DNA of 64,000 bases from Geosiphon pyriformis uo1 (GCA_016748015.1 JAAOMT010000512.1:1436893-1500892), one strand, 5' to 3'; numbered from the stretch's first letter, positions 611 to 48,875 are shown. The notes: generated by a model from the sequence alone, not told the origin. Made by a program: numbers and translations.

Positions 611-1573
611 TGTTATCAGAGGTTTTTGGTCTCTTTTCTTGAATATTGTAACTGTCTGTTGGTTGCAAATTCACGTTTTCTAGAAGTAGTTGAACCTCCA
701 ATAACTGAATTTATCTTCAAATTATCCCTTATAATTTGAACTGCTGGACTTATGAGTGGAATGGCCAATTCTCTGTCAGTTACTTTATGTAGTTACTTTG
801 TAGTAAACATCAACTCTTTCCCAGAAATTGCTCGTCTGGAAGCTCACTAAAAATGTGTAGTTACTTTGCTGTGAAAGTCAACTCTTCTACAGGAATCTTA
901 TCTGTAGGCTATCCTAATGATTGTAATAAAAAAAGAAAATAAAATAAAAAAAATGTAAAAGAAATAGGATTTTATCAAGGAAAACGTTTTCTATTCAGGC
1001 CTGGAGTCACTAACAGATTACTGAAATTGGTAGCTAATCAATTTCAAAATGTTAGTTGTGTTGAGGGAATTTCAAGTGTAATAATTTTAAAGATTTGGTT
1101 TTTGAATATTTTAATTTTTATTTGATTTTGTAAAAAAAGGTGATTTGTTCTAATTAAGATATTTTAAGTAAGTTACTATGGTAAGATACATTTTCTTAAA
1201 GAGAAAAGCTCTTCTTTTATACAACTTGTTGTAGTACTAGTCTATGAACTTGCACTTTTTCTCTTTGCTCAAATTTCAGCAAACTAAAGATATATTTTGA
1301 TAGACTACAAGTTATTTCACTGAACTATTGATTAATTTGGGTGAGCTATTCATAATTTCGGCAAATTTTAGAATGTTACAAAGTTCAGGGTATTGTGTAA
1401 TTTGATCATCTTACTTTCTGTTATACTAATTGAATTATTTAATTGAATTATGATATGTGATAATTGATTAAATAATAAATGATAATTTGAAATGATATTA
1501 ATATACTAATTAATTATAGGAATTATAAGAGTAATTTTTATGCCAATTAATAGCTAAAATTCTACTGGTAATA
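611..1573 (-). repeat. 3' LTR of element A
   Basis: Direct repeat of 9510-10492; termini TGTTATCAG...CTGGTAATA, decayed from TGTTACCAG...CTGGTAACA. Confidence 0.95.
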
Positions 1574-2253
1574 TAATCTTCTCTCCAGACTGAGCTTTGT
1601 CAAAGTCCAAGCACTATCTGTAATATTGAGATAGTGATCCAAAATAATTGAAGTAACCTGGTCTGAAAATTGTTGAAATTTCAGTTCTGTGAGTTTGCTA
1701 ATATATTGGACTTTCATTGGTTGCAGTATTGGATTTTGTAGAACATTTTCACAAGTATTAAACAAATCATAGAGTCTAAAAGCTGTTCTAAGTTTGTAGT
1801 AAGTGTTTGTTGGTCCAGCTGCTGTTTTGAATTGATTGTGAATTTGCTTTTGTATAGCTTTAGGAGTGAGATTTGTTGCTTCAAGTTCCAGTTTTCGTTC
1901 ATAAAGTGTGTTTCCAATGTGAAAGTATTTATATATAGAGGTGTGTTCATTGTTCTGTTCATTGAAAAGTAATAGAAGTTTTTGTTGTATTGTAGCATTT
2001 GGTGGAATGTCAATAGGAGCAATTAAAAGATTTTCTTCCAGTGCTTGCTTCAAAAGTCTTGGTAACTTATTTTCAGAGTGACTTCTTGTTTTTTTTCTAT
2101 AGGGGTGATAGTTCTGTGAATGATTTGCTACTGGGGCTGTGGTTTTTTCTGAATATAATTAATTTGACTTCTATTAATCGTTATGGATAAGTCAGGAAGT
2201 GTTTTCAAGACTAACTTTTGGGATATTTGTTGAATATTTCGGGGAATAATCAT
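1562..2253 (-). pseudogene. ORF3 of element A (unknown protein in the env position), frameshifted
   Basis: ATG at 2253 gives MIIPRNIQQISQKLV...; the track ORF 1562-2053 continues it. Homologous by eye to ORF3 of Z, C and D. Confidence 0.75.
1577..1586 (-). promoter_or_regulatory. Polypurine tract of element A
   Basis: Minus-strand GGAGAGAAGA, 3 nt before the 3' LTR. Confidence 0.8.
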
Positions 2254-2355
2254 GATAAAATTGACTAATTATGAAAAGAGAGAATAAAAAAAATTATTTT
2301 TGAATATGGGGTTTTTATTTGTTTTTGGGTTTGGATGTTTTTGTAATTTATTTAC

Positions 2356-3783
2356 TATTTTTGTCTTTGTGTTTTTATTAGAGAATTATTGTAAATTTTA
2401 AGTGTTCAAGTTTGGTTGTTGTTTTATTATAATTATTGGTTTTAAATTTCGGGAAATATCTTTAAGATTAATTAAAAAGGAATGTGTACCAATTTGTAGA
2501 ATTAATAGTTTAGGATTGTTTCTGAAATAATAGTGTTTCAATCTGTCTCCATGTGCAACTTTTACTAGTATTTTGTTATCAAGTCTTAACTTATATGATT
2601 CATTGCCTAGAATTTCGTGAATATAAAATGGTCTATCTCATTTGTTTTCAAATTTCTCACTCCATTGTTTTTCAGTCTTAGTTCTGTGTAAGAAAACTTT
2701 ATTTCCAACTTTAAATTCGTTGGTAATAGGTGGTAATTTGTTGTCATGTCTTTCTTTTTGTTGAGCTTGGGAATGTTCAATATAAGTTGCTACTATTCTT
2801 CTTTTTCCTTCCAGTGTACTAAGAAGAGTGTAGGCCCTTCTTTGGAGTGTTTCTTGAAAGTTTTCTTCATTGATTGGTTGCACTGAGTATGTTTCTACTG
2901 TGAAATTAATTGGTAATGTTGCTGTCTTTCCATAAGTAAGATCAAATGGTGTGTGTTTCATAGTATCTTGTTTTAGCATTCTATATGCTAGTAACACTAA
3001 TGGAATAAAGATATTCCATTTCTGTTCAAAGTCTGTTGAAACTTTGGCTAGAGATTCACACAATGTTCTGTTAAAACGTTCTACAAGTCCATTTGTTTGA
3101 GGATGATAGAGTAATAATAGAGGTTTTTTGACATTGAACTGTTCACAAATTTTTTGCATCAAGTTGTTCACAAAATGTGTTTCTTGATCAGATAAAAGTT
3201 CAATTGGGCATCCATGTCTACAAATAATGTCTTCATAGATGAAATTTGCTACTAATTTTGCATCTGCTCTTTGGATGGCTCTAGCTTCAAGCCATTTGGT
3301 AAGATAATCTACTGCTATTGCAATATAACAATTTCCTTGGGTTGTGATAGGTAATGGTCTGACTAAATCAATTCCAACTCTGTCAAAAGATTGTCCAACT
3401 TTGATTGGATTTAAAGGTTCTGTGGGACAAGTTCCTCTTCTTCTTTGACAACTATCACAAGATTCTACATATTGTCGAATGTCTTTTTGCATGTGAGACC
3501 AAAAATAATGTTCAAGGGTTCTTTGAATTGTTTCATCTCTTCTCAAGTGTGCTGAAGATGGATCTGTGTGCATGTTGTATAAAATTGTTTCTTTTTCATT
3601 CTCTTGTACTAATCTGAGTGGTTGGTTTAGGTTTCTGTGATTTTTATAATAGATTTTGTTCTGATGTATAAAATATTGTTTTGATTGGTGTTGTAAATGA
3701 TGTTTTTCACTTGGAAACCAGTTTTCTGGCTTGGTAAGAGTCTCCAAATAATTTTTAAAATTGCTGTAATTTCTGAGATCCAT
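2356..3783 (-). pseudogene. pol: Integrase of element A (HHCC zinc finger, DDE core, GPY/F; no chromodomain seen)
   Basis: ORF 2638-3783: MHTDPSSAHL...CDSCQ, GIDLV, LLSDQETHF, HPQTNGLVERFNRTL; continues past a TGA into PFYI...HGDRLKHYY. Confidence 0.93.
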
Positions 3784-3840
3784 TTTTGTTTGGTTATTTT
3801 GTTGGTAGGTTGGTAAGTTGTGGTGGAATTGTTGTTGGTA

Positions 3841-5280
3841 TTAATCTTGTCTCATTCTTGAGAGGCTATCAACATTGGTATGTAGTTTTCCTGGTTTATG
3901 GTGTACAATATATTTGTAGTCTGCTAGGAAATCATTCCATCAAAACTGTTTGGCACTTTGTTCAGTTTTCTTTTTATTGAGCCATTTGAGGCCAATGTTG
4001 TCTGTTATTATGTCAAATTCTTTTCTATTCTTCAGATATTGTTGAAAATGTTTAAGAGCCCAAATAACTGCGGCAGCTTCTAATTCAGTTAAGTTGTATT
4101 TTAGTTCTGTTGGTTTGAGTGTTCTATTAGCATAAGTGATAACTTGTTCTTGTCCATTTTCATATACTTGTGATAAGATGGCACCAAATGCTATATGTAA
4201 AGCATCAGTAGCTAGTTGAAATCATTTGTTAAAGTCTGGATAAGTAAGAACTGGGGCTGTTGTCAGCTTTGTTTTGAGAGTTTCAAATGCTTTTTGTTGT
4301 TCTTCAGTCTATTTGTATGGCACATTTTTATTGGTGAGATAATTGAGTGGTTTGGCAATTTCTGAGAATCCTTTGATGAATTTTCAATAATAGGAGACTA
4401 ATCCTACAAATTCTCGTAGCTCTGTGGTATTTTTAGAGATTTGGAAGTTTTTGACAGCACTGATTGTTCCAGGGTTTGGTTTAACTCTATCTTTGCTAAC
4501 AATATGTTCAAGAAAGATTAAGCTTGTTTTTCCAAAGTGACATTTCTCAATATTCAACTTCAATTCTGCTTTCCGTAATCATTGAAAAACTTTTTACAGG
4601 TAAATAAGATGGGCTTCAAAGCTTGATAAGTACACATCAGTGTCATCAAGATAAACAACTACTGATTGCCATAAGAGTCCTTCATATACAACATTCATGA
4701 GTCGTTGGAATGTTGCTAGTGTATTGCAGAGTTCAAAAAGCATAACATTGAACTCATAGTTTTCTTCTTGGGTGGTAAATGCTGTTTTGGATCAGTCTTT
4801 TGGGTCCATTTCGACTTGCCAGTATCCACTTTCCAAGTCTAAAGTTGAGAAGAACTTGGCTTTTCCTAGAGCATCTAGCATGTCATCAATTCTTGAAAGA
4901 GGATAGGCATCTCTAATTATAACACTATTCAGTTGTCTATAATTAACACAGAATCTGATTTTTCCGTTTTCTTTTTAACTAAAACTACTGATAAGACCCA
5001 AGAACTTCTTGATGGTTAAATCAATTCGTTATTGAGCATTCTTTGGATTTCTTCTCTGATGAATTGGTGGCTGGCAGGTGGCACTCGATAAGCTTGTGGA
5101 TGTTTTGGTAAAGCATCTCCTGTATGGATATGATGTTGAACAATGTTCATTTTTCCCAAGTTATTGTTGTCTTTTGCAAATATATCTGCAAATTCAGCTA
5201 TCAATTGTTTCAATTGTTTTTGTTGTTAAGATTCTAAGAGACCTATGTTAATACGAGAGAGTTTTTCTTCCAAAAGATGG
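3841..5280 (-). pseudogene. pol: Reverse transcriptase and RNase H of element A
   Basis: FSTLDLESGYWQV, VVYLDD (about 4640-4660), ATDALHIAFGAILSQ, TELEAAAVIWAL, HTNVDSLSRMRQD-stop. Confidence 0.93.
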
Positions 5281-5684
5281 TAGTTTTCAGTAGTGGGAAT
5301 GATATTTGAATTTGGGAGTAGAGTGTGCCTTACAATTTCGATAAAATTAGAGACAATTTGAGGGTTTTCATCTTGAAAAATATTGCTGTATATGATTCCA
5401 ATCTCTAATTTGTTTAATAAGACAATAGAGTAATTATTAGGGTTGTAGAATGTAACTCAAAATTTTTTCATTCCTTTGGGAATATAAACATTTGGAATTG
5501 AGATTTCATGCTTCAAACAGATTTGTTCATTGGATTCAAAGATTTGTTGTGTAGTGGTGGGTTTTGAGCAAGTGTAAATTTCGTGATATTCTTCAAAAGG
5601 TAAAATAATAATTGGCTGGGGAAGTTGAAGAATCTGGTGAAATTTATTTTGTGTATTAAGAGCTATGTTTACTAGAACTGTAAA

Positions 5685-6125
5685 TCATCCAGTTGAACCA
5701 AAACCTTGAGTTTCTCTTTCACTTTTTCCCAATTGTTCTCTGTTGTTTACTGATTGTAAACCCGAAATGTTAATTAAAAGTAAGTAAATTGCTTGAGCAA
5801 TTTTTTCAGCATGTTCAATTTTGAATGGTTTATTTGTCTTATTTTGTAACATGATAGTAATGTCTCTAGTGTATCTTGCATCTATAACTCCTCCTCTAAT
5901 ATTAATTCCTTTGGTTGCCAATGATAATCTGGAGGCAATTTGAACCATTGTTCCTGGTGGTATTTCAAAAGCAATTTTGAGATTAATTTTTGTCAAGGAC
6001 TTTGGTTGGAGAACCAAAGTATCTTTTCCTGGGTATCTTAGGTCATATCCAGCATCAATTTCGTGTGCTTTTTCTGGTCTGATTCCTTGGCCATGGTTGT
6101 CAAAATATTTAAGTTGTAGAAGTGG
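5685..6125 (-). pseudogene. dut: dUTPase domain inside pol of element A
   Basis: All five trimeric dUTPase motifs: DAGYDL, ASRLSL, GGVIDARY, EKIAQ, RETQGFGSTG. Confidence 0.93.
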
Positions 6126-6239
6126 TTGCTTTTCAAAAAGATAGATGGGGGTGGTTGGTAATTCTTCTACTAGTTCAAATACTCCAAATTCGATTTCATT
6201 TTCATCATTCTCATTTGGCAAAGGAATGTTAAGAGCATA

Positions 6240-6860
6240 ATATTTTAAACACTATTGGTCATCACAAGGCATAATACATTTTTTACACAATTGAATGTTT
6301 ATTTGCTCTAATTGTTAAATTTGAGCTTTTTTGGTCGGATATGTGTGGCTTGCAATTTGGTGGTAGGTTTCTATTTCATCTTCATAATCAAATCCAGCTA
6401 ATTCCATAGTATACTCAATATATTTAGCTTCTTTCATTTGGTGGACATCTTTTTGGGTGGCTCTATTGATCAATGCTATTGCTAAGTCAAAAATCATTTC
6501 AGCATTATGAGGGTAGTAGTAAAGTTTATTAAGAGTACTGTTGTATGCTGCATCAAATGGTGTTCCTCTTCTGACTTTTTCCGAAATTGATAGAGCATAT
6601 TGACAGGTTTGATTACATACTCCTCCTCTTATTGCTACATTAATTCAATTGTATTCTTCTGGTAGCATTTTTCCATAAGTAAGACAAGGAGTTTTGTCCC
6701 ATTTTCCACTTCTCTTTGGGGATCCAAATCATTCTCTATGGCATGCCTTGCAGAAATAACAAGTGCAAGTTTCGTATTTCTCTTCTGGGGAAATACAGGC
6801 TCTCATAAATAAAAGCTTCTTTTTGCAATCTTTGCATTTTAGTGGAATGTATGATGGTTT
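6240..6860 (-). pseudogene. Cysteine-rich domain between protease and dUTPase in element A
   Basis: CRDC, CKAC, GGVCNQTCQY, RGTPFDAA, YPH, LCKKCIMPC; homologous segments are present in B, C and D. Confidence 0.7.
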
Positions 6861-7049
6861 TTTTCGTGGTTCTGGTGTGGAATATCTAACTTTTTTTCAT
6901 CTTCTTGATTCTTCAAAAATCTCTTGTTTTGTTTTCTCAGCCCAATTGGATGGTGATCTAAGAGCCATGTAAGTTTTAGTAAGTGACATTTCTTTCTCTT
7001 CTTCAAATTCAAATACTGGAGCTTTTTCTGATCATTTGTTAAAGGTATC

Positions 7050-7520
7050 ACAGGTTGCAGATACTATGGTATATTGTTCTTGGTATGAGATTTTAAGTTC
7101 TTGAGTTTTTCAGTTCAGGTTTGTATTGCCCTTGAGAAGCCAATCATTTCCGACTAGAACTTGGTATTGGGGTGCATTCATAACAAGAACTTTAACTGGA
7201 ATGGTGATTCCATCAATTGTAAAGGGGAAATTATCAATTTCTTCTACTAGAGTCTTCTTCATACTATCAGCTGTGACAATAACTGTTTGAGCTGGTCTGT
7301 CTATGTTTTGTTTGAGTTGTTGCATCAGCTGGTAAGTGATGATACTTCCAGCCAATCTACTATCTAAGATTAAGTGAATGGGTTTTTTTTCCACTGTAGC
7401 TTCTGTGTATATAGCAGTAATTGCTTTCTGTTCATTGACTGCTGTATTACTAAGCAGAAATGGTGATTTATTTGCTTCAAATTCAAATGAAAATATATCT
7501 GACAGATTGGCATTTTGGGC
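7050..7520 (-). pseudogene. Aspartic protease of element A
   Basis: LILDSRLAGSII (decayed DSGSAGS) and LVGNDWL. Confidence 0.9.
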
Positions 7521-7599
7521 AATTTGAGTTGGTGGAATGGTATGGTTAGAAGGATTTGATTTTGGTGCTGCAATTTCACCTTCAGAAAGTGCAGTTTGT

Positions 7600-9464
7600 T
7601 GAAAATCCGATTTCTCTGGTATTGTAAGATAACTGGGTTGAGTGTGATAGTGATTGGGTCTTTGCTGACCCAAATTTCGGGGAACCAACTGGTTATTTGG
7701 ATTAATTCTGTTGTTGTTACTCTGCAATTGATTTTGGGGTATAAATTGGTTATATTGAACCAATTTTCTTGCTGATACTTGATATTGTTGAGTGAGTGGT
7801 GTCTGATATGGCTGAATTGGTAAAAATTGCTGATATTGTTGCTGCATTGGTTGTGGAGTTGGTGAATAGTAACTGTTTTGATTTTGTGATCTTGGTGAAT
7901 AATAAGTTGGTGATAGAGATTGATAATAAAATTGTTGTGGTAAAGAGTAATGTTGATTACTCCTGTTTTGTTGGTCTCTTTGTAATTTCTTACAATCTCG
8001 TTTCCAGTGTCCTGGAATTCTACAATAATGACAATTTTGAGGTTAGTTGTTGGATGGTGATCCAAAATTGTTTTGGTTGCATTGTTGTGAGGGTTGATAT
8101 CTTTGTGATTGTTGTTGTTGTTGTTGTTGGTTTGTGAAGTAGCTTTCAACCTTTTTTGTGAGTTGGTCTATCTTCTCTTCAGCTGTTGAGCTGGTTTCTC
8201 CAATTGCAAGGTTTACAAACTTGGTGTGATTTGTTTTTTCCATTGCCATTTCATAGCTTTTTGTATATCTAATAGCAGTTGCTAAGTTTGTTAGAGCATG
8301 TAGATGGACTTTCTTAATCAGTTTGTCTTTTAACCCTGCTATAAACTGATCCAGAATTTGAGCATCAAAATAGTAGTCATTGGTTTCCAATTGTCAGATT
8401 TGTCTGAGAAGTTTGTTAAATCTTCTAAGATAGGTCATAACAGTTTCAGATGTTTCTTGTTTGATATTGTGAAAGTGATTTTTGAGAGTGATAGAGATAT
8501 TGTTGTCAGTGAATTGTTATAGAAAAGCAGCTTTGAATGCTTGCCAGTTTTCAAATAGTTCTTCTAAATTTTCAAACTATTCTCCTGCTGTTCTTTGAAG
8601 AAAGTAGGGAATTGCTTTGAGTATTTTTGCTGTGATCCAACTATTTGCATCTCCTGCTTTTTGAACTTTGTCAAGCCATTCTTAAGAACTGGTATTATTG
8701 TCTTCACTAGTAAATTCTGGAATTTTTGCAATGTAAGCAGTTGTAATTTCTTCTTCGTTTTCTGTAATTTCTTCTGGTTTTGATTCAGTTTCTTCACTTT
8801 CCAAGCTTTCCGAATAATTATTTTCATTTTCCTGTAAGTAATCAATGATATTGGCACTTGTTGATATTGGTTCCTGCTATTGAGTAGAGTTTCTAGGTGA
8901 CTGAAAATCTTCTGGTCTGAAGAAGTGGTTGAGTGGTGAATTTGGTGTTTGTGGTTGAACAAGTGAAATTGGAAATAGTGTAATAGAAAGTGGTAGTTTG
9001 ACACTGGTTCCTTGTTTAGGTGTTTGCAAGTGTTTGGCAGTTGTCTTTTGTAGTGTTGGAGTGTTTGGAGTGGTTCTTGAGTATTGCTTCAATCTTTGTT
9101 TGTCTTTGTTGCTTGTTTCTGTCTCTGATTCAAAATCAATAGAGTATTGAGACTGTACTGGGTATTATTTTTCACAATACTCAATAATGTTAAAATTAAG
9201 TTCTTGGAAGTAGGTAGCAAGTGTTTTACTGTTCAGATCTTCTGTTCTCAATCGTGAATAGTACACTAAATTATTGTAAAGATTGCTTCTGACTTCTGAA
9301 ATATTGTAGTTTCCAAAAAGATAATTGTTGATGCAGTTTTCAATATATTGGTATACTGATTTCTTGACAACTTCAATTCCGTCTGAAATGTTGAATCTTT
9401 GCTTGCAGTGAATGTAAATTGACTGGTAATACTCTAGAGTTGCTGTGTTTGGTGTGGTTACCAC
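7600..9464 (-). pseudogene. gag: Gag of element A: N-terminal extension, capsid, CCHC knuckle
   Basis: CHYCRIPGHWKRDC near 7990-8035; ILDQFIAGLKDKLIKKV; AYIAKIPEF capsid start. Confidence 0.88.
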
Positions 9465-9489
9465 TTTGAATTTGTTTTTGCTGTGTTGT

Positions 9490-9507
9490 TTCTGTGGGAG
9501 AGCACCA
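9490..9507 (-). promoter_or_regulatory. Primer binding site of element A
   Basis: LTR end, then TT, then TGGTGCTCTCCCACAG, complementary to a tRNA 3' end ...GAGAGCACCA. Confidence 0.85.
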
Positions 9508-9509
9508 AA

Positions 9510-10492
9510 TATTACCAGAGGTTTTTGGTCTCTTTTTTTGAATGTTGTAACTGTTTGTTGGTTGCAAATTCACGTTTTCTAGAAGTAGTTGAACCTCCAA
9601 TAACTGAATTTATCTTCAAATTATCTCTTATAATTTGAACTGCTGGGCTTATAAGTGGAATGACCAATTCCCTGCCAGTTATTTTATGTAGTTATGTTGT
9701 AGTAAACATCAATTCTTTCCCAAGAATTGCTCGTCTGAAAGCTCACTAAAAATGTGTAGTTACTTTGCTGTGAAAGTCAACTCTTCTACAGGAATCTCAT
9801 CTGTAGGCTATCCTAATGATTGTAATAAAAAAATAAAAGAAAATAAAAGAAATATAAAAGAAATAAGATTTTATTAAGGGAAACGTTTTCTATTCAGGCC
9901 TGGAGTCACTAACAGATTACTGAAATTGGTAGCTAATCAATTTCAAAATGTTAGTTGTGTCGAGGAAATTTCAAGTGTAATAATTTTAAGGATTTGGTTT
10001 TTGAATATTTTAATTTTTATTTGATTTTGTAAAAAAAGGTGATTTGTTCTAATTAAGATATTTTAAGTAAGTTACTATGGTAAGATACATTTTCTTGAAA
10101 AGAAAAGCTTTTCTTTTATACAACTTGTTGTAGTACTAGTCTATGAACTTGCACTTTTTTTCTTTGCTCAAATTTCAGCAAACTAAAGATACATTTTGAT
10201 AAACTACAAGTTATTTTATTGAACTATTAATTAATTTTGGTGAACTATTCATAATTTCGGCGAATTTCTTATAAATTTCGGCAAATTTTAGAATGTTACA
10301 AAGTTCATGTATTGTGTAATTTAATCATCCTACTTTCTGTTATACTAATTGGATTATTTAATTGAATTGTGATATGTGATAATTGATTAAATAATAAATG
10401 ATAATTTGAAATAATATTAATATACTAATTAATTATAGGAATTATAAAGGTAACTTTCCTGCCAATTAATAGCTAAAATTCTATTGGTAACA
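9510..10492 (-). repeat. 5' LTR of element A
   Basis: Direct repeat of 611-1573, ends TGGTAACA, adjacent to the PBS. Confidence 0.95.
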
Positions 10493-10514
10493 GCGACAAA
10501 AGCAACCAAGAAAA

Positions 10515-11150
10515 ATGGAAATACCAGATTATATTTACACTATAGCTCAACAATTGTTCCAGGCCTTAAGTAAACAACAGTTAGACATAGAAATTGTTAT
10601 TAACAACCAAATAATTTGCTATCGAAGCACCCAAAGAAAGACAAAAAATACACTATATTAGCAGCCACCAAAAAATGATAAAAAATGAACAAATAACTTA
10701 ATAGAAAAAGTAAAAAACACTTTTGGGAAAATATCTATTATGGCACCAACAAAAGAGCTTACAAAAGAAAATTGGAAGCAATAGACAGAACAACTTCCAA
10801 TATTATATTGCTACTACTAGTTAGGTCAAAAGTTGAATATTCAGGAGTTGTATATTAACAATATCAAGAAAATATTCAACCAAGACATAATACAACAAAT
10901 TGAAGAATTTATCAGAAAGAAAATGAATTCAACACTACATGTTAAAACAATATACCGACTACACAACATATTTCAAAACTATCCAGAAATACTGTTCCAC
11001 TTTGACATGGAAATTATAACCATTAACCAATGGGAAAAAATAAACAATACACAAGTAGAAGACATAAGAAACAGAATTGAACAAACAATACTTGAAAAAG
11101 AAGTATTAGAATTAATTCAAAATGAAGATTTTGTTGGAGCTCAATATTAG
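10515..11150 (+). pseudogene. ORF3 of element Z (212 codons, several internal stops)
   Basis: AAAAATGG start gives MEIPDYIYTIAQQLFQAL, in frame with track ORF 10833-11150 ending DFVGAQY. Confidence 0.8.
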
Positions 11151-11828
11151 CATTGCTTGAGAAATTATAGCACATCACTTAAAAATGTGAGCAATCTCGT
11201 AAAACCCAAATTATGTATATATAGTGGTAGCATTAGAAGTAGAAAAAGACAGACCTCTCCATTTAGATTTCATCTAAGCGACCTTTTACTCCACAAATAT
11301 CAATAAATAATTATTCTCTATTTCAAATTCACTCTCCATTATTAACACTTCATGTTGATAATAATTAATACTTAAACACACTGGAACAATAACTCTTGAT
11401 CATGGCTATTGACAGGATACTAACTTGCAATTGCTTTTATTTACTTCTTTTATTTTCTTTTATTTTGTTATTTCTTTGTTTGACTAATCGATTAAAGATT
11501 AAGTGCTGAGTTATTAACATCAAGAATAGCCTGGTAAAAGACCCTAAAGGAAGGGTATAAGAATTATATATATTAATGAATAGCTTATTAAAAAGGCATC
11601 TCTGTCAAGATTACCAGCCACCATATTGAAAAAATAATTTGACAGAATTGTAATTCTGAGAGACTACTAGAAAGACAACAATTGAATCTCTGTCTATTAT
11701 ACAAAAGATTCAACCAAAATCTTTAGACACAAACAACACCTTTTAATATCCCCAAGCAGAACAATTAATTAAGCACTAAGTTATGAGTTTGTTATTTGAT
11801 TTGAGATCTCAAATAATCACTTATAACA
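11151..11828 (+). repeat. 3' LTR of element Z, missing the PPT and the start of U3
   Basis: Matches the family-1 LTR from the ATTGCT repeat block onward; ends TATAACA at 11828. Confidence 0.85.
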
Positions 11829-12200
11829 TCACTTACTTCCCAATAGCCTTAACAATTGATGTGATAATAATAATTCAGTCACTTACTTTCTAATAGTCTT
11901 AACAATCAATGCAACAATAATAATCAGATTTACTTATTTTTGGATGGTCTTAGTAATCAATGCAACAATAGTAATTCACTTACTTTTAGACAGCTACAAC
12001 AATCCACATAAATATATTAATCAAATTTGCTTATCTTTAAATGGTTATAGCAATTAATATAACAATGATAATCAGATTCACTTATCTTTGGATAGTCTTG
12101 ACAATCAATGTAACAATAATAATTTACTTCACTTACTTTTGGATAGTTATGGTAATTATTACAGCAATGCTAAATAAATTTACTTAGTGGCTTGGACAAT
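11829..12200 (+). repeat. Degenerate minisatellite, about 7 units of 45-51 bp
   Basis: Unit approximately TCACTTACTTTTGGATAGTCTTRACAATCAATGCAACAATAATAATCAGAT. Confidence 0.85.
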
Positions 12201-13945: not shown

Positions 13946-13979
13946 CTTTTGTTATATTTTTGGATTAGAATGTTCTTAG

Positions 13980-19928: not shown

Positions 19929-19991
19929 TTTTGAATGGTTGTTTGTTGGTGCTGGTTCTCTGTAGGATTATATCTCACAAAAAGCACCAAA

Positions 19992-39017: not shown

Positions 39018-39817
39018 TGTTACAGATAATTATTTAGGGTCTTAAAGCAAATAACAAACTCATAACTTGGTGCTCAATTAATAATATGATGTTGATATCT
39101 GAAGGTTTTGGATTGAGTTCTTTGTATAATAGACAGAGATTTAGTGGTGATTTTAATAGTTTTCTGGAATTGCAATTCTGCCCAATTTTTTTTTCAGCTT
39201 GGTGGCTGGATTTATTCTGACAGTTGTGCCCTTCTGATAAGCTATCTGTTAATATATATGTAATTCTATCCTTATTTCTGAGTCTTTACCAGGCTATCCT
39301 TGATGTCAATAATTCAGTACTTTATTCTTTAATTAATTAGTCACAACAAGAAATAACAAAACAAAAGAAAAAAAAATAAAAGAAAATAAAGAAATAAGCC
39401 AAGACAATAAATGTTAGTATCTCATCAATAGTTATAATCAAGAGCTATTGTTTCAGTGTGGTTAAGTGTCAATTACTATCAACATGAAGTATTGATAGTG
39501 GGAAGTAGATTTGAAATATTGAATAATTATTTATTGATATTTGTGATGTGGAAGGTTGTTTAGATTAAATCTAAACTCAAAGATCTGTCTTTTCTGTTTC
39601 TAATGCTACTGTTATATATATACCTAATTTATGTTCTATGAGATTGCTCACATTTTTGAGCAATGTGTTATGATTTCTTGAGCAATACTTATATTGCTAA
39701 GCAATGTGCTCTAATTTTCTAACATCACTCCATATTGCTGAGTAATGTGCTCACATATTAACTACTACTCCCTTATTGGTCTACTATTTTCTATATCTGT
39801 TTTCTTTATGAATAACA
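39018..39817 (-). repeat. 3' LTR of element D
   Basis: Direct repeat of 48076-48875. Confidence 0.95.
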
Positions 39818-39830
39818 TTATCTCTTTTTT

Positions 39831-40497
39831 TTAATATTGAGCTCTGTCAAAATCCTTATTTTGAATTATGTCAAATACTTCTTTTTCAAATAGTGTCTGT
39901 TCCATTTTACTCTTTATTTCTTCAATTTGTGAGTTGTTTATTCTTCTCCATTGGTTGATAGTTATTGTTTTTATGTTAAAATGTAACAATATTTTTGGGT
40001 CCAAACACTTCTGTCAATGTAATCTCTTGGGAGTTTTAAAATATAGTGTGTAGTTAATAAATGGTTCTGATGTGTAATGTTAAGTTTGTTTTCTTTTCAA
40101 TAATGTCTTCAATATTCCAGATTATCTCTTGATTGAAGATTCTTTTTGATTTGTCAAAATATAACTTCTAAATATCTACTTTTTATTCCAATTGATAGTA
40201 GCAGTATGATATTAGAATTTGGTCTATCCATTGGTTTCAATTTTTTTTCATCAGTTTTTCTGTTGGAACAATGATGGTTATCTTTCCAAAAGTGTTCTTT
40301 ACTTTCTCTACTATTTTATCTGACCAGTTTATTGATTGTTTTTGTGATCGCTGGTATGGTGTACTTTTCCTTTTTTGTTTGGTGTTTTGATAACAGATTG
40401 TTTGGTTGTTAATGATAATTTCTATGTTTACTTGCTGTTGACTTAAAGCCTGAAACAATTGTTAAGCTAAAGTGTAAATATGGTCTGGTATTTCCAT
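39831..40497 (-). pseudogene. ORF3 of element D
   Basis: MEIPDHIYTLA...LFQALSQQQVNIEIIINNQTICY...DFDRAQY-stop. Confidence 0.8.
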
Positions 40498-40552: not shown

Positions 40553-41934
40553 TCAATTTGACATGTTTGGTTCAATAACTATGATTGGTTCCAGATCTTG
40601 TGGAATCTCATCTGGTTAAACTAGTATTCTCTGTGCTCCCAGTTGTGAAATATTATTGGTAGATGCTAATATTATGTTTTAATATAGTTTTAGTCGATTT
40701 CTATGTGCTGCTTTGGTTAAAATTTTGTTGTTCAACCTTAATTTATAAGCTTCATTTTCTAGAATTTTTTTTATGTAAAATGGTCTGTCCCATTTGGGGT
40801 CAAATTTTCCACTCTATTGTTTTTCTGCTTTGATACAATGTAAAAGTATTTTGTTTTCAATCTTGAATTTGACTGGTTTATTTGGTAATTGGTTATTATA
40901 TCTTTCTTTTTGTTTTTCTTATGATTTTTGGATATTATTAGCTGCTTTTTGCCATTTGTTCTCTAGTGTCTCCATTAAGTCATATGTTCTTTTTAACAAT
41001 GTTTTTTGAAATTCTCTTCTGTTATTGGTTTTGTTGAATATGTTTTGACTTCTATCTCAACTGGTAATATTGTTGTTCTACCATATACTAATTCAAATGG
41101 TGTTGTTTATGTAATGTTTTGTTTTATTGTTCAATAAGCAAATAATACTGATGGTATAAACAAATCCTATTTGTCCTGGTTTTTTTGGCTGATTTTGGTG
41201 GTTGCTTCACACAATGTTCTGTTAAATCTTTTAACTAATCCATTTGTTTGTGGATAGTATGGTGATGATAATGGTCTTTTTATCTCAAATTTTTGACTTA
41301 ATTTTACCAATGTTCTATTTACAAAGTGAGTTTCTTAATCTAATAATAGTTCTTTTAAACATCCATGTTGGCAGATTAAATCTTGATAAATGAATTCAGC
41401 AATGGATTCTGCATCTGCTCTTTGAATGGTTTTTGTTTCTGGCCATTTTGTGAGATAGTTCATGGCTACTGCAATATATCTGTTGTTTCTGCTGGTTATT
41501 GTTAATAATCTGACTAAGTCAATTCCAATGTAATTAAATGGTTGTCCCACTTTGATTAGTCTTAATGGTTTGCTAGGTTTTGTTTCTCCTTTTTTCTAAT
41601 AAGCATTATAATTTTGAACATATTAGATGATATCTGGATATATTGATGGCCAATAGTATTTTTTTCTAATTCTTTCCATGGTTGCTTCTTTGTAAAAATG
41701 TCTTGCTATTGGATCTGAGTACATGTTGAATAATATTGTCTCTTTTTCTGGTTCTGTAATTACTCTAGTTAGTTGATCTGGATTTCTTTTGTTCTTCTAG
41801 TAAAGTATATTTTGATAGTTAATAAAATATTTTGATTGTTGTTTTATGTTGTTTTGTTCTTTTTGAGATAATTTTTCCTTGAACAATTGGGTATTTATAT
41901 AATGTTAGAATTGTTGATATTTTTGTATATTCAT
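40553..41934 (-). pseudogene. pol: Integrase of element D
   Basis: ATG at 41934 (MNIQKYQQ); GIDLVRLL, YLTKWPET, PYYPQTNGLV. Confidence 0.88.
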
Positions 41935-41959
41935 CTTTTGTTATATTTTTGGATTTGAA

Positions 41960-43380
41960 ATGTTTTTGGATTTGTTTTATTTGTGACAAACTGTTGGCAT
42001 TTTCATTTTTTTTTCTTTTTTTGTAATGCACTGTATAATTAAATGGTGAAAGTTTTATTTTCCATCTGACATGACAATTGTCTCCAAATTCTTGCTTCTG
42101 GATCAAAGTCAATTCTTTATAATCAGTGTATATATTGAACTTTTGATTTAAGTATTCTTTCTATTTGATAACAGTTCAATAGATAGTTAAGTATTCCAAT
42201 GCTGGTGTTCCATAGTTCTTTTCAGTGGAATTTAAGCTGTGGCTAGCATATGCTATTGGATGTTCTCTTTCATTCAGTTCTTTCTGAGATAGCACAGCTT
42301 CTAATACTTAACTAGATATATCAGTGGTAATTATAAATGGCTTGCAATGATCTGAATAGATTAGTATCAGGGCTTGAATAAGCTTTCTTCTTAATATATC
42401 AAAAGCTTCTTGCTGAGTTTCTGTCCATTTATATTTGGTGTTCTTTGTTTGGAGCTGGTATAATGGCTGAGCCAGTTTGGAAAAGTCTTTGATGAAACAG
42501 CAGTAATATTTAGCAAATCCCAAAAATGCTTTTAATTCCATATGATTGTTTGGTATTGGAAAGTTTTTAATTATCTCAATTTTGTCTGGATCTATTTTAA
42601 TGCAATCTTTGCTTATAACATGTTCCAAAAATTTCAATTTTGTTTTGCCAAAGAAGTATTTAGTAGCATTTAACTTCAATCTAGCTTTTCTTAGTTTTTC
42701 AAATACTTGTTATAAATGGTGCAAATGATCATCAAATGTTTTAGAAAATACGTTGGTGTTATCTAGATACACAACTACTGATTTTTATAGCAGTTCAGTA
42801 TAGACAATTTTTATAAGCTGTTGAAATATAACTGGAGTATTCATTAAGCTAAATGATATAACTTCAAATTCGAAATTTTTTTCTTGAGTTGTAAAAGCTG
42901 TTTTCTCTTTGTCTTCTGAGTTCATGGCTACTTGTCAGTAACTACTGTCTAAATCTAAAGTTGAAAATTATTTCTTTTCTCCAAAAGTGTCAAACAGCTC
43001 TTGAATCTTTAGTGTTGGGTAGCTATCTTCTTTGGTTACTCTATTTAGTTTTTAGTAATCCACACAAAAGTAGATTTTTCCATTTTTCTTATGGACTAGT
43101 ACTACTGGTGATAACCATGGGCTTATTGATGGCTGAATTAGCCCATTGTTAAGCATCTAATTGATTTCTTGACAAATGATCTCATGGCTGGCTGGTGGTA
43201 CTTAATATGCTTTTTGTTTAATTAGTATTGTATCTTCAGTTTTGATTTGGTGCTGGATTATGTCAGTTCTGCCAAATTCATTTTTACTGGCAAAGATGTC
43301 ATTGAAGTTGTTAAGTAACATCTTGAGTTGCATCTATTAAAATGAGTTTAGATTTCCTAAGTTCATCTGTTTTAATTGTT
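41960..43380 (-). pseudogene. pol: RT and RNase H of element D
   Basis: VVYLDN, FLGFAKYY, FIITTDISS. Confidence 0.88.
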
Positions 43381-43789
43381 TTGGTTAGAGCAGATAACAT
43401 TCTTCTTGTCCATAAATTGTTTGTGATGTAATATCCACATATTCACACAGTTGTAGAAAGTCTGGAATGGTGTTTGGCAGTTGGTTTTTAATTTTAGTGG
43501 TTAAATATCCAATGGTAGTTCTTTTTAATATCTTAATAGTATTTTCTGTGTTGTTGTAAATGAGAATTTTTATGTGACTGTGGTTTTTGGCTGGTATGTA
43601 TAGATTGACTAATCCAATCTTTCTTGATTTACAAAGTATTGTTTCTGCCTCAAAAATCTGAACCTGATCCTTTACTTTTCTTTTTATAACTACCATGTAC
43701 TGATTATATGGTGGAATAGAAATTGATTAACAAGTGAAGATAATTTCTCTTTTGTTAACAACTTTTTTCTCTGCCATATTAACTGGTAC

Positions 43790-44230
43790 ATCTATTCTAC
43801 CCGTAAATCTGAAACTCTGTATCTCTCTAGCTATAATTCTTAATTTTTTTCTGTTTTTTACTAATACTAACTGAGCTATTTTCACTAGAGATAAAAATAT
43901 TGTCTGTGCTATTTTTTTATTTGGCTCTATAATATAGGCCTTTTCTGAGTCATTTTGTAGCATTGTAATAATATTTCCCATATATCTTGCATCAATTATT
44001 TCTTCTCTGATGTTGATTTCTTTTTTTGCTAAACTATTCCTGGATGCTAGTTAAACTATTGTTGTTGCCAGGATTTCTAGTGCTACTTTGAAATCAATGC
44101 AGATACACAAATATGGTTTCAATTTGATGGCATTTTTTCTTGGATATCTTAGATCAAATCCTACATCAGTATCATGCATATGTTCTGGCATAATGTCTTC
44201 ATTATTATCACTGAACTATTTCAATTTCTG
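43790..44230 (-). pseudogene. dut: dUTPase domain of element D, decayed
   Basis: DTDVGFDLRYP, LASRNSLAKK, IIDARYMG, KIAQTI, REIQSFRFTG. Confidence 0.85.
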
Positions 44231-45329
44231 TTTCTTGGTAAGATCAAAGAGTGTAATATATTGTTTGGAGTTTGAATTGGAGTTCGAATTATTGTTATTT
44301 TCATTGTCATTTTGAATAGAGCTGGAACTATTGTTTTTGTTATCACTGTTGTTAAAGTTTGAAATGGAATTAAAAATTGATTTTAATTCTAATATGCAGC
44401 TGCTGATTGGTTTTTCTTCTTTTGGGATTGTGTAGATTATACATGGTGGTTGATTGTAAATAAAATTACACTCATTACAGTATTGAAAGTTACATAGAAT
44501 CAAATAGTGGTCACATAATTAGGTATTTATTTCTTCCAAGCATTGCTTTTGCTCTTCTCTGGTGAATGTTAAATTTTGATAGTGCTTGTGAAACTTTTTT
44601 GGGCCTGTTTCTATGTCAAAAAAAGCATCAGAGTTTGGAATGAAAACAGTGTCAACTGGTTTTAGAGGATTATTTTTGATTTCCAATATTTTGCTGGACA
44701 TGGTGCTTTCAACTTTGGCATTTGTCATTTGCCAGATTTCATCTTTGTCATGTGGGTAACCATTCAAACAAGTTATTGCTTAGTGCCAGACTGCAATAAT
44801 AGAAGTGCCATGACTGATCCAGTTGCTTATAAGGATTGTGTATTGGCACGAAGTATTGCATGTTCCTCTTTGACAAAGAATGTTGTTCCACATTCCTTTG
44901 TCCAGCAACTGTTCTCCACAAATAAGACATGGTTTGTTGTTCTACTTGCTCTATTATTTTGGATAGCCATACTATTCTCTGTGGCATAACTTGCAGTAAT
45001 AGTGGGTTCGCATTCAGTAATCTTTATTGGATGCAATTCAAGCTCCCATGGAAGAAAGTTTCTTGCCACAATCTTGGTATTTGAGTGGGATATATGGTGA
45101 TTGCTTCAGTGGCTCATATGAGTAGAATTTTTTCCAGCCACTAGTTATTTCTTCAGTGGTGGTGTCTTCTTCTACTGTATCCTCTTTCTTTCTTTTCCCT
45201 TTGTTGTCCTAGAAAAGTATTAGTAGTAACTTGTTGTGCTTAGTGTTGGTTCAGAAAACTTGGTAGGCTTTTCAGATAGGTTTTTTTTCTTCTTTTTCCA
45301 ATTTGATGAGTGGCTTGTTATTAGTAGTG

Positions 45330-48013
45330 GTCTTAAAATGACTACAAGTGGCTAGCACACATGTGTGGTAGCTGTTTTGACTGAGCTGCAGTTTTTGGGT
45401 GTTCCAGTCAAGCACTGCATTAGTTTTGAACAGCCAGTTATTTCCAACAAAAGCTTGATACTAAGTGGTTTCCATTACCAATACCCTAATTGGTATTATA
45501 ATACTGTTGACTTCAAATAGGAAGTTATCTATTTCACCAATTGGAGTTTTTGTTGTCCTATTGGCTATAATTATTTGTGCACTGACAGCACAATTAACTT
45601 GGTAACCTAATTGGTTTATGAGTTGTTATGTGATGATGCTGTCAGCTGATCCACTGTCTAAGATCAGTTTAATGTGCTGCCCATCAACTTTAATATCTCT
45701 ATATATTGCAGTGATGGATTTTGATTCTAGAGTGACTCTACTAAATAGTGGCATTTCAACTGGTTCCTCGAGTTCAAAAAAAAAAATAGCAGTAAGTAAT
45801 TTGTCCTTAGTAATGGTTGCTGGCAGTATATTGTTAGTAAGTGGCTGCTTTTGTTTGATTTCTAAATTGTGAGATGTAGTGTCTTCTAGAGTTACCAGGA
45901 GACTTAAATAATTCTGGGAACTCAGGTTTTGAGTGTATCCGGTTCCTGAACTCCACTGGTGTAATCTCAATGACTGGTTTGAGGAGCTGAACATTAGTTG
46001 GTAGACAACTATTGCTGATCTTCAGTTTTGGATAATCTTTGATCTGAGATTTTCTGATGTTATTTGAGCTGAGTTTGATGGCAATGTTGGAATTTGTTGG
46101 AATTGATAGATTACTTAAGACTGTGGCTGATAAATAGGTTGTGTCTGTGGTTGATAAACTATGGCTGCTGGAGACTGATAAATTAATGGTTGATAAATTG
46201 GCTGCTATATTATGAGTAAGTAATTTGGTTGATATGGTGCTGGATTGGGTTAATAACTCGGAGTTTGAAACCAGTAATCAGGGTTTTAATATTGATTTCC
46301 TGATCATTGGTTATTTAATTGATGACAGCAGTCAATTTGTAGATGTCCTTGTTTACCACAATAGTGGTAAACACATGTTTTCTGTTGCTACTATTAATTG
46401 GTCAATGATGATAAATGTGATAGATTTTGGAAACAATTGGAGTTTTCCTGATTAGTGCATTATTGGGAAGGTTAATAAATTGTCTGATTATTGTTAGTTA
46501 AGTATCCCTCTAATTTTTGATTGATCAAGTCATTAAATTGTTTCAATTTGGAATTTAAGTCAGATAATTTGTTCATTACTAAATTTACAGCTTAGATATG
46601 ATTGGCTTTTAATTTAGCTGCTTTAAAATCTCTGACATAGGTAACTGCAGTTTGAAAATCTGCTGAATATAATAGACATACACATTGAAGAATGCTACTG
46701 TGTAGGCCTTTAATGAATTGATTTAGAATTTGTGATACTATGAAATAATCAGCTTGGATTGTCTGAATTTGGCACAGATTCCTATGGAAGTGTCCTAGGT
46801 AGGTAATAACTGCTTTATTTTCTCTTTGTTTGATGGTAATGAAGGTATTTGCTAGACGATTAATACTATTATTATTGCTGAAATATTGTAGGAATGCAAG
46901 CTTAAATGTATTGAAGTCTTAAAATTTGTTGGCCAAACTTTAATATTATAAGTTGGTGGTATTCTGAAAAAAGTATAAGATGGCTTGCATGGCTCTAGTG
47001 TCATTCTATTTGTTGGTTGTGATGGCTTTTTCTATATTGTTCAGCCACATTTGGGCATCATTTTCCTCATCTGTGAATTTTTCAAGTTTTGCTATTGGGG
47101 TGTAGGCCATTGGATCCAAGTTTGGTTGTTGTAGTTTTTAAAAAAATAATTACTGAGGTGGTATTGGTGGCTGTTGAAGTTGTTCAGCAATTGGATCAAT
47201 TGGTTGCTGATTGATGACAATTTCTGGGGATAAGTTTTGCTGATTAATTAACTCAGAGTTTGGATTGTTTAAAGTTTGCTGGGTTTGAATATTTGGAGTT
47301 TCAACTTCCAGATTTTCTGCAATTGGATTTTGATAATTAAATTCTTGATCTTTTTTTTCTAATGCTGTTATTTTCCAAGGACTTGCAGTTCCAAAATCTG
47401 GTGGAGATGGTAGTAATTGGAATTCTAATGGTATTAGAGATTGTAATTTGAATTTTTTAAAGTAATTACTATATGTTCTCAATAACTCTGCTTTCTTTTG
47501 TTTACTTTGAAATGGAAGTTGTCCAAATATTAATGTTATGTTTGATGTGAATGCATCTGCTGATGTGATATTGATGGTACTTCTGGATGTGTAATAGTAA
47601 AATAAATATAATGGAGATTTGATTCTTTGTTTTTTCTATGTGGGTAATTGTATTTCTTTTGGAGTTGCTACTGGTGTTTGTAACTTTCCTTTACCTTTAT
47701 TTGCATAGGTAATAGAAAATTGTTGTTGAGTGTATCTTTTAATTTCTTAATTAATTTCTCTAATGATTGGTGCGAAACTTTAATTTCGTGGTAAGTTAGT
47801 GTATTGAATTAATTTTGTATAGAAATTTTCTCTTGCTAACTTAATGTTAACTGGTCTTCTCAGAAAATCTGTGATTTTTTTGTTGACATAGAAATTGAAG
47901 ACTGATTCCCCCAGATAATAGTTGTTGGTTAAGCTCAATTGTTGGCTGTACTGTTGAAATAAGGATTTAGTGAATCTTAAATGGTTTGTCCCTATTATTT
48001 TTGATTCTGCCAC
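45330..48013 (-). pseudogene. gag: Gag and protease of element D
   Basis: LILDSGSADSII; capsid start MAYTPIAKLEKF at 47110; N-terminal domain in track ORF 47780-48013. Confidence 0.87.
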
Positions 48014-48075
48014 TTTTAAATGACTGTTGTTGGTACTGATTCTCTATAGAATTATACCTTACAAGGAGCACCAAA

Positions 48076-48875
48076 TGTTACAGATAATTATTTGGAGTCT
48101 CAAAGCAAATAACAAACCTATAACTTAGTACTCAATTGATAATATGATGTTAATATCTGAAGATTTTGGGTTGAGTTTTTTGTATAATGGACAAAAATTT
48201 AGTGGTGATTGTAATAGTTTTCTAAAATCACAATTCTGCCCAATTTTTTTTTCAACTTAGTAGCCAGATTTATTTTAGCAGTCATGCCCTTCTAATAAGC
48301 TATCTGTTAATATATATGTAATTCTACCCTTATTTCTGGGTCTTTTACCAGGCTATTCTTAATGTTAATAATTTAGCACTTTACTCTTTAATCAATTAGT
48401 CACAACAAGAAATAACAAAACAAAAGAAAAAAAAATAAAAAAAAATAAAGAAATAAGCCAAGGCAATGAATGTTAGTATCTCATCAATAGCTATGATCAA
48501 AAGCTATTGTTCTAGTGTGATTAAGTATTAATTACTATCAACATGAAGTGTTAATAGTGAGAAGTAAATTTGAGATATTGAATAATTATTTATTGATATT
48601 TGTGATGTAAAAGATTGCTTAGATTAAATCTAAACTCAGAAGTCTGTTTTTTCTGTTTCTAATACTACTGCTATATATATACTTAATTTATGTTCTACAA
48701 GATTGCTCACATTCTTGAGCAATGTGCTATGATTTCTTGAGCAATACTCATATTGCTGAGCAATATGTCATCATTTTTGATATTGCTCCATATTACTAAG
48801 TAATATGCTCACATGCTAATTACTACTCCCTTATTGATCTACTATTTTCTATATCTGTTTTCTTTATAAGTAACA
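48076..48875 (-). repeat. 5' LTR of element D
   Basis: TGTTACAGAT...AAGTAACA. Confidence 0.95.

Follow-up and report, generated by a model that had tools for sequence, protein, structure and literature searches.

Three Ty3/Gypsy families of Geosiphon pyriformis with integrase and a third open reading frame outside Pol

Textbook long terminal repeat (LTR) retroelements package integrase (IN) as part of Gag-Pol. For Ty3/Gypsy elements (Metaviridae) reviews describe integrase as a domain of Pol, at least in the passages drawn on here (PMC3248453, PMC2864245, PMC5006619). Its position as the C-terminal part of Pol is the usual trait of the group, rather than a formal taxonomic criterion, and it is a trait that the elements described below lack. 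These lie in a stretch of 64,000 nucleotides from Geosiphon pyriformis uo1 (GCA_016748015.1 JAAOMT010000512.1:1436893-1500892), hereafter the window, from a genome of which 41% is given as LTR elements in the relevant part of its description (PMC11952901). The window contains three two-LTR elements, all on the minus strand, denoted A (611-10492), C (26895-37608) and D (39018-48875). All three are Ty3/Gypsy by every structural and domain test except that integrase lies outside Pol. We have very little doubt about this gene plan, in which the Gag-Pol frame ends after RNase H (RH), integrase occupies an open reading frame (ORF) of its own, and a small ORF3 follows it.

The junction between RH and IN takes a different form in each family. 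In A the Pol frame ends at TAA 3843, and a 57-nt spacer leads to the integrase ATG at 3783 in the same frame as RH; in C, TAA 29946 is followed after 29 nt by ATA 29914 in a different frame; and in D the integrase ATG at 41934 overlaps the RH frame, whose stop is at 41821. The Met of A and D and the ATA of C all stand eleven residues ahead of a conserved integrase Tyr (Y/F). Among 621 contigs carrying other copies of A (run X1, which may derive from the same source as the window and is not an independent sample) no letter other than that of the window reaches 6% at the stop (3841-3843) or the ATG (3781-3783), and neighbouring sites vary by 8-62%. Private transitions of the window copy are plainly visible in the wider X1 alignment, among the 40 of its 127 rows that were listed.

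Relatives point the same way. Met at exactly this position is the start of 96 of the 120 nearest integrase homologues, with 23 starting further downstream (including P0082) and 2 slightly upstream; these are the best 120 of 1228, with lengths of 209-667 aa, and include Rhizophagus irregularis and R. clarus proteins. As this search was filtered by length, proteins of 668-2000 aa were searched too, and only five fused matches fall in the clade, namely four eukaryotic gene models and the protein P0124. Among 36 fetched loci (numbered L) with both domains, a split is found in every one of the 13 near metagenome loci, and in 10 of these neither RH nor IN contains a stop. The 23 other loci include 11 that are intact, every one of them fused, and 6 that are split, all decayed (L031 was assigned to the distant group on the basis of the reverse transcriptase (RT)-RH tree). 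Distances from stop to ATG in the relatives are -8, 30, 62, 63, 74, 82, 89, 110, 163, 365 and 727 nt, in all three frames. Read-through, or a single fixed frameshift, into integrase was considered and rejected because the offsets occupy all three frames. These comparisons support a separate integrase and ORF3 that are ancestral and not the result of decay.

Some observations pull in the other direction. The two D-family copies disagree at the junction: one base there separates B from D, and in B an in-frame TAA lies 6 nt ahead of the ATG. The four eukaryotic gene models, seen as proteins and not as DNA, join Pol to integrase; three of them visibly skip the RH end or the IN N-terminus, and one is nearly identical to a stand-alone R. 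clarus integrase. P0124 is a true RT-RH-IN-ORF3 fusion in one frame inside the clade, and the data do not discriminate between a sister and a nested position for it (approximately unbiased test, p 0.52).

In the RT-RH tree the split elements, the gene models and P0124 form one group (FastTree support 84, 123 rows; IQ-TREE 97/86, 14 of 43 rows). The same group is seen in the integrase tree (53 of 113 rows, Shimodaira-Hasegawa-like support 95), which does not include copy B. As outgroups the trees had 109 fused elements, most of them unnamed, which the same searches had yielded, and no references from GyDB, REXdb or Repbase, so the clade can neither be named nor excluded from named clades (Ylt1, SN_1006, Tcn1 and others). 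A first-pass annotation of the window had proposed that A, C and D belong to one old lineage, which agrees with their grouping as a sub-clade on an RT-RH branch with support of 100/98. It had also called for a search for the same layout in other Glomeromycotina, and relatives with the core plan are indeed present, reaching Rhizophagus, Gigaspora and Cetraspora. The earlier supposition that the whole plan is common to the lineage is not supported: the GTG start, the Cys-rich block and the dUTPase were seen in none of the metagenome relatives.

Self-comparison and inspection of ends show the 64-kb window to be made up of nested, decayed LTR retrotransposons. Direct LTRs with TG...CA ends, a primer-binding site (PBS) and a polypurine tract (PPT) are the structural marks of Ty3/Gypsy. 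Pfam identifies Gypsy-type RT/RH and integrase (RT_RNaseH, Integrase_H2C2, rve, SH3_Tf2-1; HHCC, DDE, GPF/Y) and, with stops read as X, gives in A, C and D the order Gag, protease (PR), dUTPase, RT, RNase H, then an H2C2-rve-SH3 integrase. The CCHC knuckle has a Pfam match in A only, and was recognised by eye in C and D. In D, Gag to RNase H is one frame of 2,065 codons with zero frameshifts. Identity between families is 52-54% in RT-RH and about 55-60% in integrase.

The layout that the first-pass annotation had read in A, C and D, GTG-[N-extension-CA-CCHC-PR-Cys-rich-dUTPase-RT-RH], break, [IN], stop, [ORF3], PPT (where CA is capsid), is borne out by Pfam and the reading frames, and several of its details hold as well. 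The LTRs of the families are dissimilar, with zero inter-family matches at E 1e-8 when the window is compared with itself by blastn; global alignments of LTRs across families need 240-295 gaps, and identities taken from them are not evidence of homology. The PBSs differ (TGGTGCTCTCCC in A, TGGTGAACCCTA in C and TGGTGCTCCTTG in D), and the window has no tRNA gene that could name the primers. Both C start codons are ATA (integrase 29914, ORF3 28447), and removing from C a solo LTR (996 bp, with its 4-bp duplication 1000 bp) places Gag and PR in one frame. Target-site duplications (TSDs) of 4 bp flank three of four insertions (A TCGC/TCAC, C ATGG/ATGG, solo LTR CCAA/CCGA); the D flanks are mismatched (ACTT/ATGT). 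Runs X2 and X3 gave almost nothing matching the stretch. The features are as follows.

9510..10492, minus strand: A 5' LTR (TGTTA...TAA[T]A), 4-bp TSD TCGC/TCAC (self-comparison, ends)
9490..9507, minus strand: A PBS (TGGTGCTCTCCC...), by inspection
8748..9464, minus strand: A Gag N-terminal extension, likely start GTG 9464; 238 codons with 0 in-frame and 1 out-of-frame ATG
7986..8747, minus strand: A capsid domain and CCHC knuckle; second start codon decayed, the same-family protein P0354 starting MATAYIAK here
7086..7442, minus strand: A aspartic protease (RVP_2, E 1.2e-5)
6222..6851, minus strand: A Cys-rich domain, about 210 aa, three to four Cys clusters, matching no known family
5688..6077, minus strand: A dUTPase (PF00692, E 8e-20)
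3841..5000, minus strand: A RT and RNase H, TAA at 3843-3841, one frameshift near 5000
3784..3840, minus strand: A RH-IN spacer, 57 nt, CAA-rich, G-free, no predicted structure
2398..3783, minus strand: A integrase ORF with its own ATG (H2C2, DDE core, SH3-like end; Pfam)
1562..2253, minus strand: A ORF3, ATG 2253, one frameshift near 2050-2150, extending across the PPT into the 3' LTR
1574..1586, minus strand: A PPT
611..1573, minus strand: A 3' LTR (self-comparison)
36735..37608, minus strand: C 5' LTR, TSD ATGG/ATGG
35774..36652, minus strand: C Gag N-terminal extension from GTG 36652
34846..35773, minus strand: C capsid (second start ATG 35773) and degenerate CCHC
33850..34845, minus strand: solo LTR, A-related (87%), 996 bp, TSD CCAA/CCGA, between C nucleocapsid (NC) and PR
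29944..33849, minus strand: C protease, Cys-rich domain (32333-32953), dUTPase, RT and RNase H; TAA 29946; two frameshifts
28535..29914, minus strand: C integrase ORF, with ATA as start at the site of the family's invariant Met
27770..28447, minus strand: C ORF3 (start ATA); PPT at 27769-27783
26895..27768, minus strand: C 3' LTR
48076..48875, minus strand: D 5' LTR, without matching TSD
41819..48013, minus strand: D Gag-Pol in one frame: GTG 48013, second ATG 47110, CA, CCHC, PR, Cys-rich (44447-45100), dUTPase, RT, RH
40553..41934, minus strand: D integrase ORF, ATG 41934, one frameshift near 40950
39818..40497, minus strand: D ORF3 (ATG 40497) and decayed PPT; E 1.8e-6 to A/C ORF3
39018..39817, minus strand: D 3' LTR
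12664..20812, minus strand: copy B of the D family, 3'-truncated; GTG 19928; integrase ATG 13945 with in-frame TAA 6 nt upstream
1..11829, plus strand: D-family remnant (1-606 and 10493-11829: integrase end, ORF3, LTR) into which A inserted
61725-64000, plus strand: second D-family remnant

LTR pairs are 94.6% (A), 94.7% (C) and 89.3% (D) identical, with transition to transversion counts of 46:6, 46:0 and 83:2, and CpG stands at 0.15 of expectation. Since the pairs differ almost purely by transitions and CpG is so depleted, decay by cytosine deamination is indicated; the present copies are dead, and were probably silenced and decayed in this way. All copies are heavily decayed: the Gag-to-RT frame has 18 stops in A and 51 in D, frameshifts number one in A RT and two in C, and catalytic residues are partly decayed in the window copies.

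Gag appears to have two starts. The motif AAAGTGG occurs once per leader, in the Gag frame and 44-79 nt past the LTR, with its GTG at 9464 in A, 36652 in C, 48013 in D and 19928 in copy B; a fifth copy has GTA at this site. Protein similarity among A, B, C and D starts at the GTG (0 of 300 shuffles in each of the 6 pairs), and upstream of it the leaders of B and D are offset by an indel of a single base. A second start, not noted in the first-pass annotation, lies about 240-300 codons on, just before the capsid. It is ATG in C and D, has decayed in A and B, and is Met in the same-family protein P0354. Three intact relatives have the same two-start build with a different extension, the first ATG having a pyrimidine at -3 and the second a purine. 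Overall, the first start is either GTG or an ATG with a pyrimidine at -3, while position -3 of the second start is a purine in C, L014, L009 and L001.

Between the two starts ATG is scarce. Out-of-frame ATGs in seven N-extensions number 13 against 52.3 expected from codon shuffles, and 0 against 24.4 in the three intact relatives; outside the N-extensions there are 444 against 429 expected. Met makes up 4 of 1842 codons in the seven extensions, compared with 169 of 10597 elsewhere. Depletion of ATG between starts is a prediction of leaky scanning, which argues for this mechanism: a long Gag would begin at the weak GTG, and a short Gag would arise from ribosomes that scan past it to the ATG before the capsid. 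We regard the production of long and short Gag by leaky scanning as quite probable from the sequence, and use of the GTG as a start as likely, by a shade less. Five points count against these readings. ATG depletion taken alone is non-significant in D (p 0.20) and B (p 0.10), the long N-terminal region of L016 is not depleted (36 against 38), a low-complexity control, the D NC-PR spacer, is depleted too (p 0.015), the second start of D has C at -3, and in C an in-frame ATG within the PBS, with two stops after it and upstream of the GTG, could be the true first start. Literature look-ups returned nothing relevant to the leaky-scanning pattern. Separately, the Gag N-terminal region of L016 (1-1650) exceeds 500 aa and has many small Cys clusters, and in this locus the gag and pro-pol frames overlap.

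How integrase might be made without Pol can be approached from the spacers. All the proteins probably derive from one LTR-to-LTR RNA, on which the polyprotein would end after RNase H and the separate integrase ORF, with its own ATG, and the small helical ORF3 would be translated by restart after the upstream stop. The likely purpose is to uncouple the dose of integrase from that of Gag-Pol, here a single frame with no frameshift, in which case integrase would need to reach the particle or the cDNA in trans. Taken as a whole, three families of one Glomeromycotina Ty3/Gypsy lineage with polycistronic decoding are the explanation that we favour, with some confidence. For integrase itself the sequence features incline us slightly towards the genomic RNA as template, with restart or internal initiation, over a shorter RNA.

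Stop and start overlap in L015 (-8, Pol to IN), L013 (-4, cargo ORF to IN) and L008 (-4, IN to ORF3). Eight short spacers hold 1 ATG against 6.9 expected (L003 and L014 being left out of the count). Of 18 integrase starts, with L017 left out, 15 have a purine at -3 and 15 have G at +4. The A and C spacers are CAA-rich, G-free and unstructured. Stop-restart is used by fungal viruses and SART1, and cauliflower mosaic virus (CaMV) uses a viral helper; restart of the type that relies on a ribosome-binding site upstream of the point of termination (a TURBS) tolerates about 20-30 nt between stop and start, according to the passages concerned (PMC10275272). Stop and start lie within about this range in B (6), C (29), L016 (30), L015 (-8) and L013 (-4), and outside it in A (57), D (-113) and L001, L003, L004, L007, L009, L010, L012, L014 and L029 (62-727).

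In one sister subfamily a candidate RNA element was found. A two-helix RNA of 40 nt is present in 8 loci and stops 3-15 nt short of the integrase ATG (L007 583-625, L008 183-225, L009 4461-4503, L011 173-215, L018 6-48, L020 490-532, L017 17-59 and L006 22-62), and this subfamily is one side of a branch with support of 92/78, R. irregularis P0108 included. On the 6 sequences used to build the model 97% of cells pair and 5 of 12 pairs covary, a covariation score reached in 0 of 500 shuffles; slid controls gave 0.01-0.17 against 0.46, and the model recovered two further loci. Rfam gave no match on 8 loci at E up to 1, the pattern had 0 matches in viral and prokaryote contigs, and literature look-ups returned nothing relevant. 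The hairpin could be an internal-entry, restart, cleavage or nuclease-blocking element.

Three of these results count against the favoured reading: simple restart is hard to reconcile with the spacers of L003 (365 nt, with 7 ATGs) and L014 (727 nt, with 12), most spacers, at 30-163 nt, go beyond TURBS-type tolerance, and the hairpin model has no match in the window elements or the 11 other split loci. Given this last absence, several mechanisms are possible.

The same gene plan could instead be expressed with integrase and ORF3 from shorter RNAs, produced by splicing, by transcription from an internal promoter, or by cleavage or trimming at a structured RNA. Shorter RNAs also serve for errantivirus env and foamy-virus pol. 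The long, ATG-rich spacers of L003 and L014 are better explained by a subgenomic RNA, the strong Kozak context of the integrase ATG is just as compatible with scanning to the first AUG of a short RNA, and the 5' end of an RNA could be marked by the stable hairpin that ends 3-15 nt ahead of the ATG in 8 loci. However, the spacers of A, C, L004 and L012 have no AG splice acceptor (one may lie inside RH), and the stop-start overlaps in L008, L013 and L015 are a signature of coupled translation. We consider shorter RNAs possible, if rather doubtful, and restart or internal initiation on the genomic RNA remains the reading that we prefer.

Two further observations concern decoding. An in-frame TGA-CTA lies between protease and RT, with frames otherwise open, in L003 (870-875), L014 (3358-3363) and L015 (1585-1590); we take this to be a stop read-through context and a likely read-through site. 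The A, B and D frames of the window contain no TGA-CTA at this place. In L013 (3-1237) two cargo ORFs with short overlaps lie directly upstream of integrase, the second matching the restriction-endonuclease family Mrr_cat_2 (E 5.5e-9).

ORF3 starts at ATG 2253 in A, ATA 28447 in C and ATG 40497 in D, and extends into the PPT. A profile built from 10 ORF3s retrieves 460 clusters (50% identity), of about 140-230 aa (at most 200 aa in 138 of the best 150); the profile used for the initial recruitment included A and C. The 10 member proteins looked up by name come from R. irregularis, Gigaspora margarita, Glomus cerebriforme, Cetraspora pellucida and G. pyriformis. ORF3 lies directly 3' of integrase in 8 loci and is fused to the integrase C-terminus in P0124. 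No Pfam family covers the domain at the curated cut-off in 38 members tested, and none of 6 proteins matched PHROG. The predicted structure of the L001 ORF3 is all-alpha (143 aa, predicted local distance difference test (pLDDT) 92), with no Foldseek match in PDB or BFVD and generic helical repeats as the best VIA match (Z 5.1), from which neither a new fold nor a function follows. The window ORF3s belong to the family as divergent members with a longer N-terminus (profile-profile probability 84 and E 7.8e-6, against 0.15 for the reversed control), that of D joining via the A/C ORF3 (E 1.8e-6); telling against their membership, direct matches to the wider family are weak (hidden Markov model E 0.017 and 0.059). 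From its position next to integrase and from the P0124 fusion, our tentative best guess is that ORF3 would act as a partner of integrase, or as a targeting module in place of a chromodomain. A translation transactivator and a silencing suppressor are alternatives, and literature look-ups on ORF3 returned nothing relevant.

The first-pass annotation had called the lineage retrovirus-like, which is not supported. One rival reading is an infectious lineage of this kind, with ORF3 as an envelope or movement protein; as an envelope protein it would be expected to carry a signal peptide, a furin site and a membrane anchor. ORF3 does occupy the env position between integrase and PPT, the accessory domains are numerous, and one Atlas neighbour of ORF3 is a closterovirus coat cluster (score 0.94, 150 of 256 features), which is a lead only. 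A 19-residue stretch with hydrophobicity above 1.6 is, however, found in none of 94 members, and on this ground, the lack of a membrane-like segment, ORF3 is not env; it also has no env match, is only about 140-230 aa and all-alpha, and belongs to no Pfam or PHROG family. An infectious, retrovirus-like lineage is thus very unlikely. Least credible of all is that the break is an artefact of decay, with CAA or CAG turned into a stop, an incidental Met and an ordinary single Pol: A integrase does sit in frame with RNase H behind a single TAA in a window full of C-to-T stops, and P0124 is fused, but the stop is invariant across the other A copies in the 621 X1 contigs, 10 intact loci are split in all frame offsets against 11 intact distant loci that are fused, and the Met position is fixed in 96 of 120 homologues.

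Between PR and dUTPase a 210-aa Cys-rich block can be aligned across A, B, C and D; its predicted structure is too poor to use (pLDDT 61), and no match was found. Of 434 protein matches to the Cys-rich/dUTPase region, every one of the best 120 is a G. pyriformis hypothetical protein, with identity of up to 85%. Neither domain is present in the protease-to-RT regions of L003, L009, L014, L015 and L016, and because they were not seen in relatives they are taken as features of this host's sub-lineage, probably later captures. The earlier statement that canonical fungal Gypsy elements lack such accessory domains does not hold for the dUTPase, which is known between PR and RT from Postia, Phanerochaete and Tuber elements in the portion of the literature consulted (PMC2864245). 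At least 120 annotated G. pyriformis hypothetical proteins (P0241-P0360) are fragments of the family A Cys-rich/dUTPase region; filed as proteins, they would inflate the dUTPase domain count of this fungus. Between dUTPase and RT, about 140 aa (window 5270-5680; C 31400-31770; D 43400-43830) are beta-rich and dUTPase-like by eye, possibly a second, degenerate dUTPase domain. Long acidic Pol extensions containing Cys and His run past RNase H in L009 (3500-4441), L014 (4950-6705) and L007 (2-544), without a match to the window Cys-rich profile.

Other features of the window and loci may be recorded briefly. The PBS of L009 (6740-6757) matches that of D (window 48057-48073) at 16 of 17 bases despite distant RTs, and L007 and L014 have another PBS in common. 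Repeat families at 20815-24200, 49170-56755, 37615-38372 and 57947-59590 consist of 65-75% identical copies in both orientations, AT-rich and largely non-coding, between the Gypsy elements. A degenerate tandem repeat of about 51 nt at 11848-12186 adjoins a plus-strand LTR.

New here are the ATG-depleted gag N-extension, the ORF3 family of 460 clusters and, in one sister subfamily, the covarying hairpin, which is not in Rfam. A bolder synthesis, which we put forward as speculative, is that of an unnamed genus-level Metaviridae lineage of arbuscular mycorrhizal fungi with a caulimovirus-like polycistronic RNA: two Gags would be made by leaky scanning, protease-RT in some families by TGA-CTA read-through, and integrase and cargo ORFs by restart or a new RNA element, with ORF3 driving restart or bringing free integrase to the cDNA. 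If true, this would be the first LTR retroelement group with an integrase not made from Pol. A large and successful clade with free-standing integrase raises the matter of its synthesis, its amount and its route to the cDNA, and the 57-nt spacer, the 40-nt hairpin and the 140-aa protein offer compact test pieces for polycistronic translation in fungi. There is also a consequence for annotation, as pieces of these elements are filed as host genes, with stand-alone integrases and ORF3s in Rhizophagus, Glomus, Gigaspora and Cetraspora. Most G. pyriformis repeats have already been classified from known sequences, as stated in the part of the genome paper concerned (PMC11952901), and for this reason families A, C and D may sit in repeat libraries as plain Gypsy entries. 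Full-text literature searches turned up no account of a Gypsy integrase encoded by an ORF of its own; such a description could still stand in Repbase Reports or GyDB, in subscription journals or in supplements, which lay outside this scope.

With canonical Ty3/Gypsy elements the families share TG...CA LTRs, a tRNA-type PBS, a PPT, a short TSD, the series Gag-PR-RT-RH-IN and an HHCC-DDE-GPY/F integrase; they differ in having integrase outside Pol, a conserved ORF3, two Gag starts, no chromodomain and a 4-bp TSD. Chromoviruses have a C-terminal chromodomain in integrase, whereas PF00385 is absent from the window integrases and from the 120 nearest homologues. In gammaretroviruses an N-terminally extended glyco-Gag is made from a weak upstream non-AUG start, and ordinary Gag from a downstream AUG. 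The likeness seen is one of start layout, and the extension here, of 240-300 aa, differs between sub-lineages.

Among fungal elements, PosPlaTy3-5, Phanerochaete elements and Tmt1 of Tuber share the position of dUTPase between PR and RT (PMC2864245, PMC6431247). They are described as having integrase in Pol and an independently acquired dUTPase, and the descriptions used for this comparison, in the parts covered, mention no Cys-rich block, separate IN or ORF3. Helminthosporium victoriae virus 190S (HvV190S), Cryphonectria hypovirus 1 (CHV1), caliciviruses, SART1 and CaMV, driven by its transactivator (TAV), resemble the present elements in that the downstream ORF has its own AUG at or shortly after a stop, sometimes with an RNA element or a virus-coded helper, as far as the source passages go (PMC10275272). 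These are other element classes, and most spacers here are longer than TURBS allows. Env-bearing errantiviruses and other three-ORF Gypsy elements (the extra ORFs of Athila/Tat, the ORF3s of bdelloid elements) likewise have one more sense ORF, placed after integrase and before the 3' LTR. In them integrase forms part of Pol, according to the source passages (PMC2774666), and ORF3 here is small, soluble, helical and unrelated to env.

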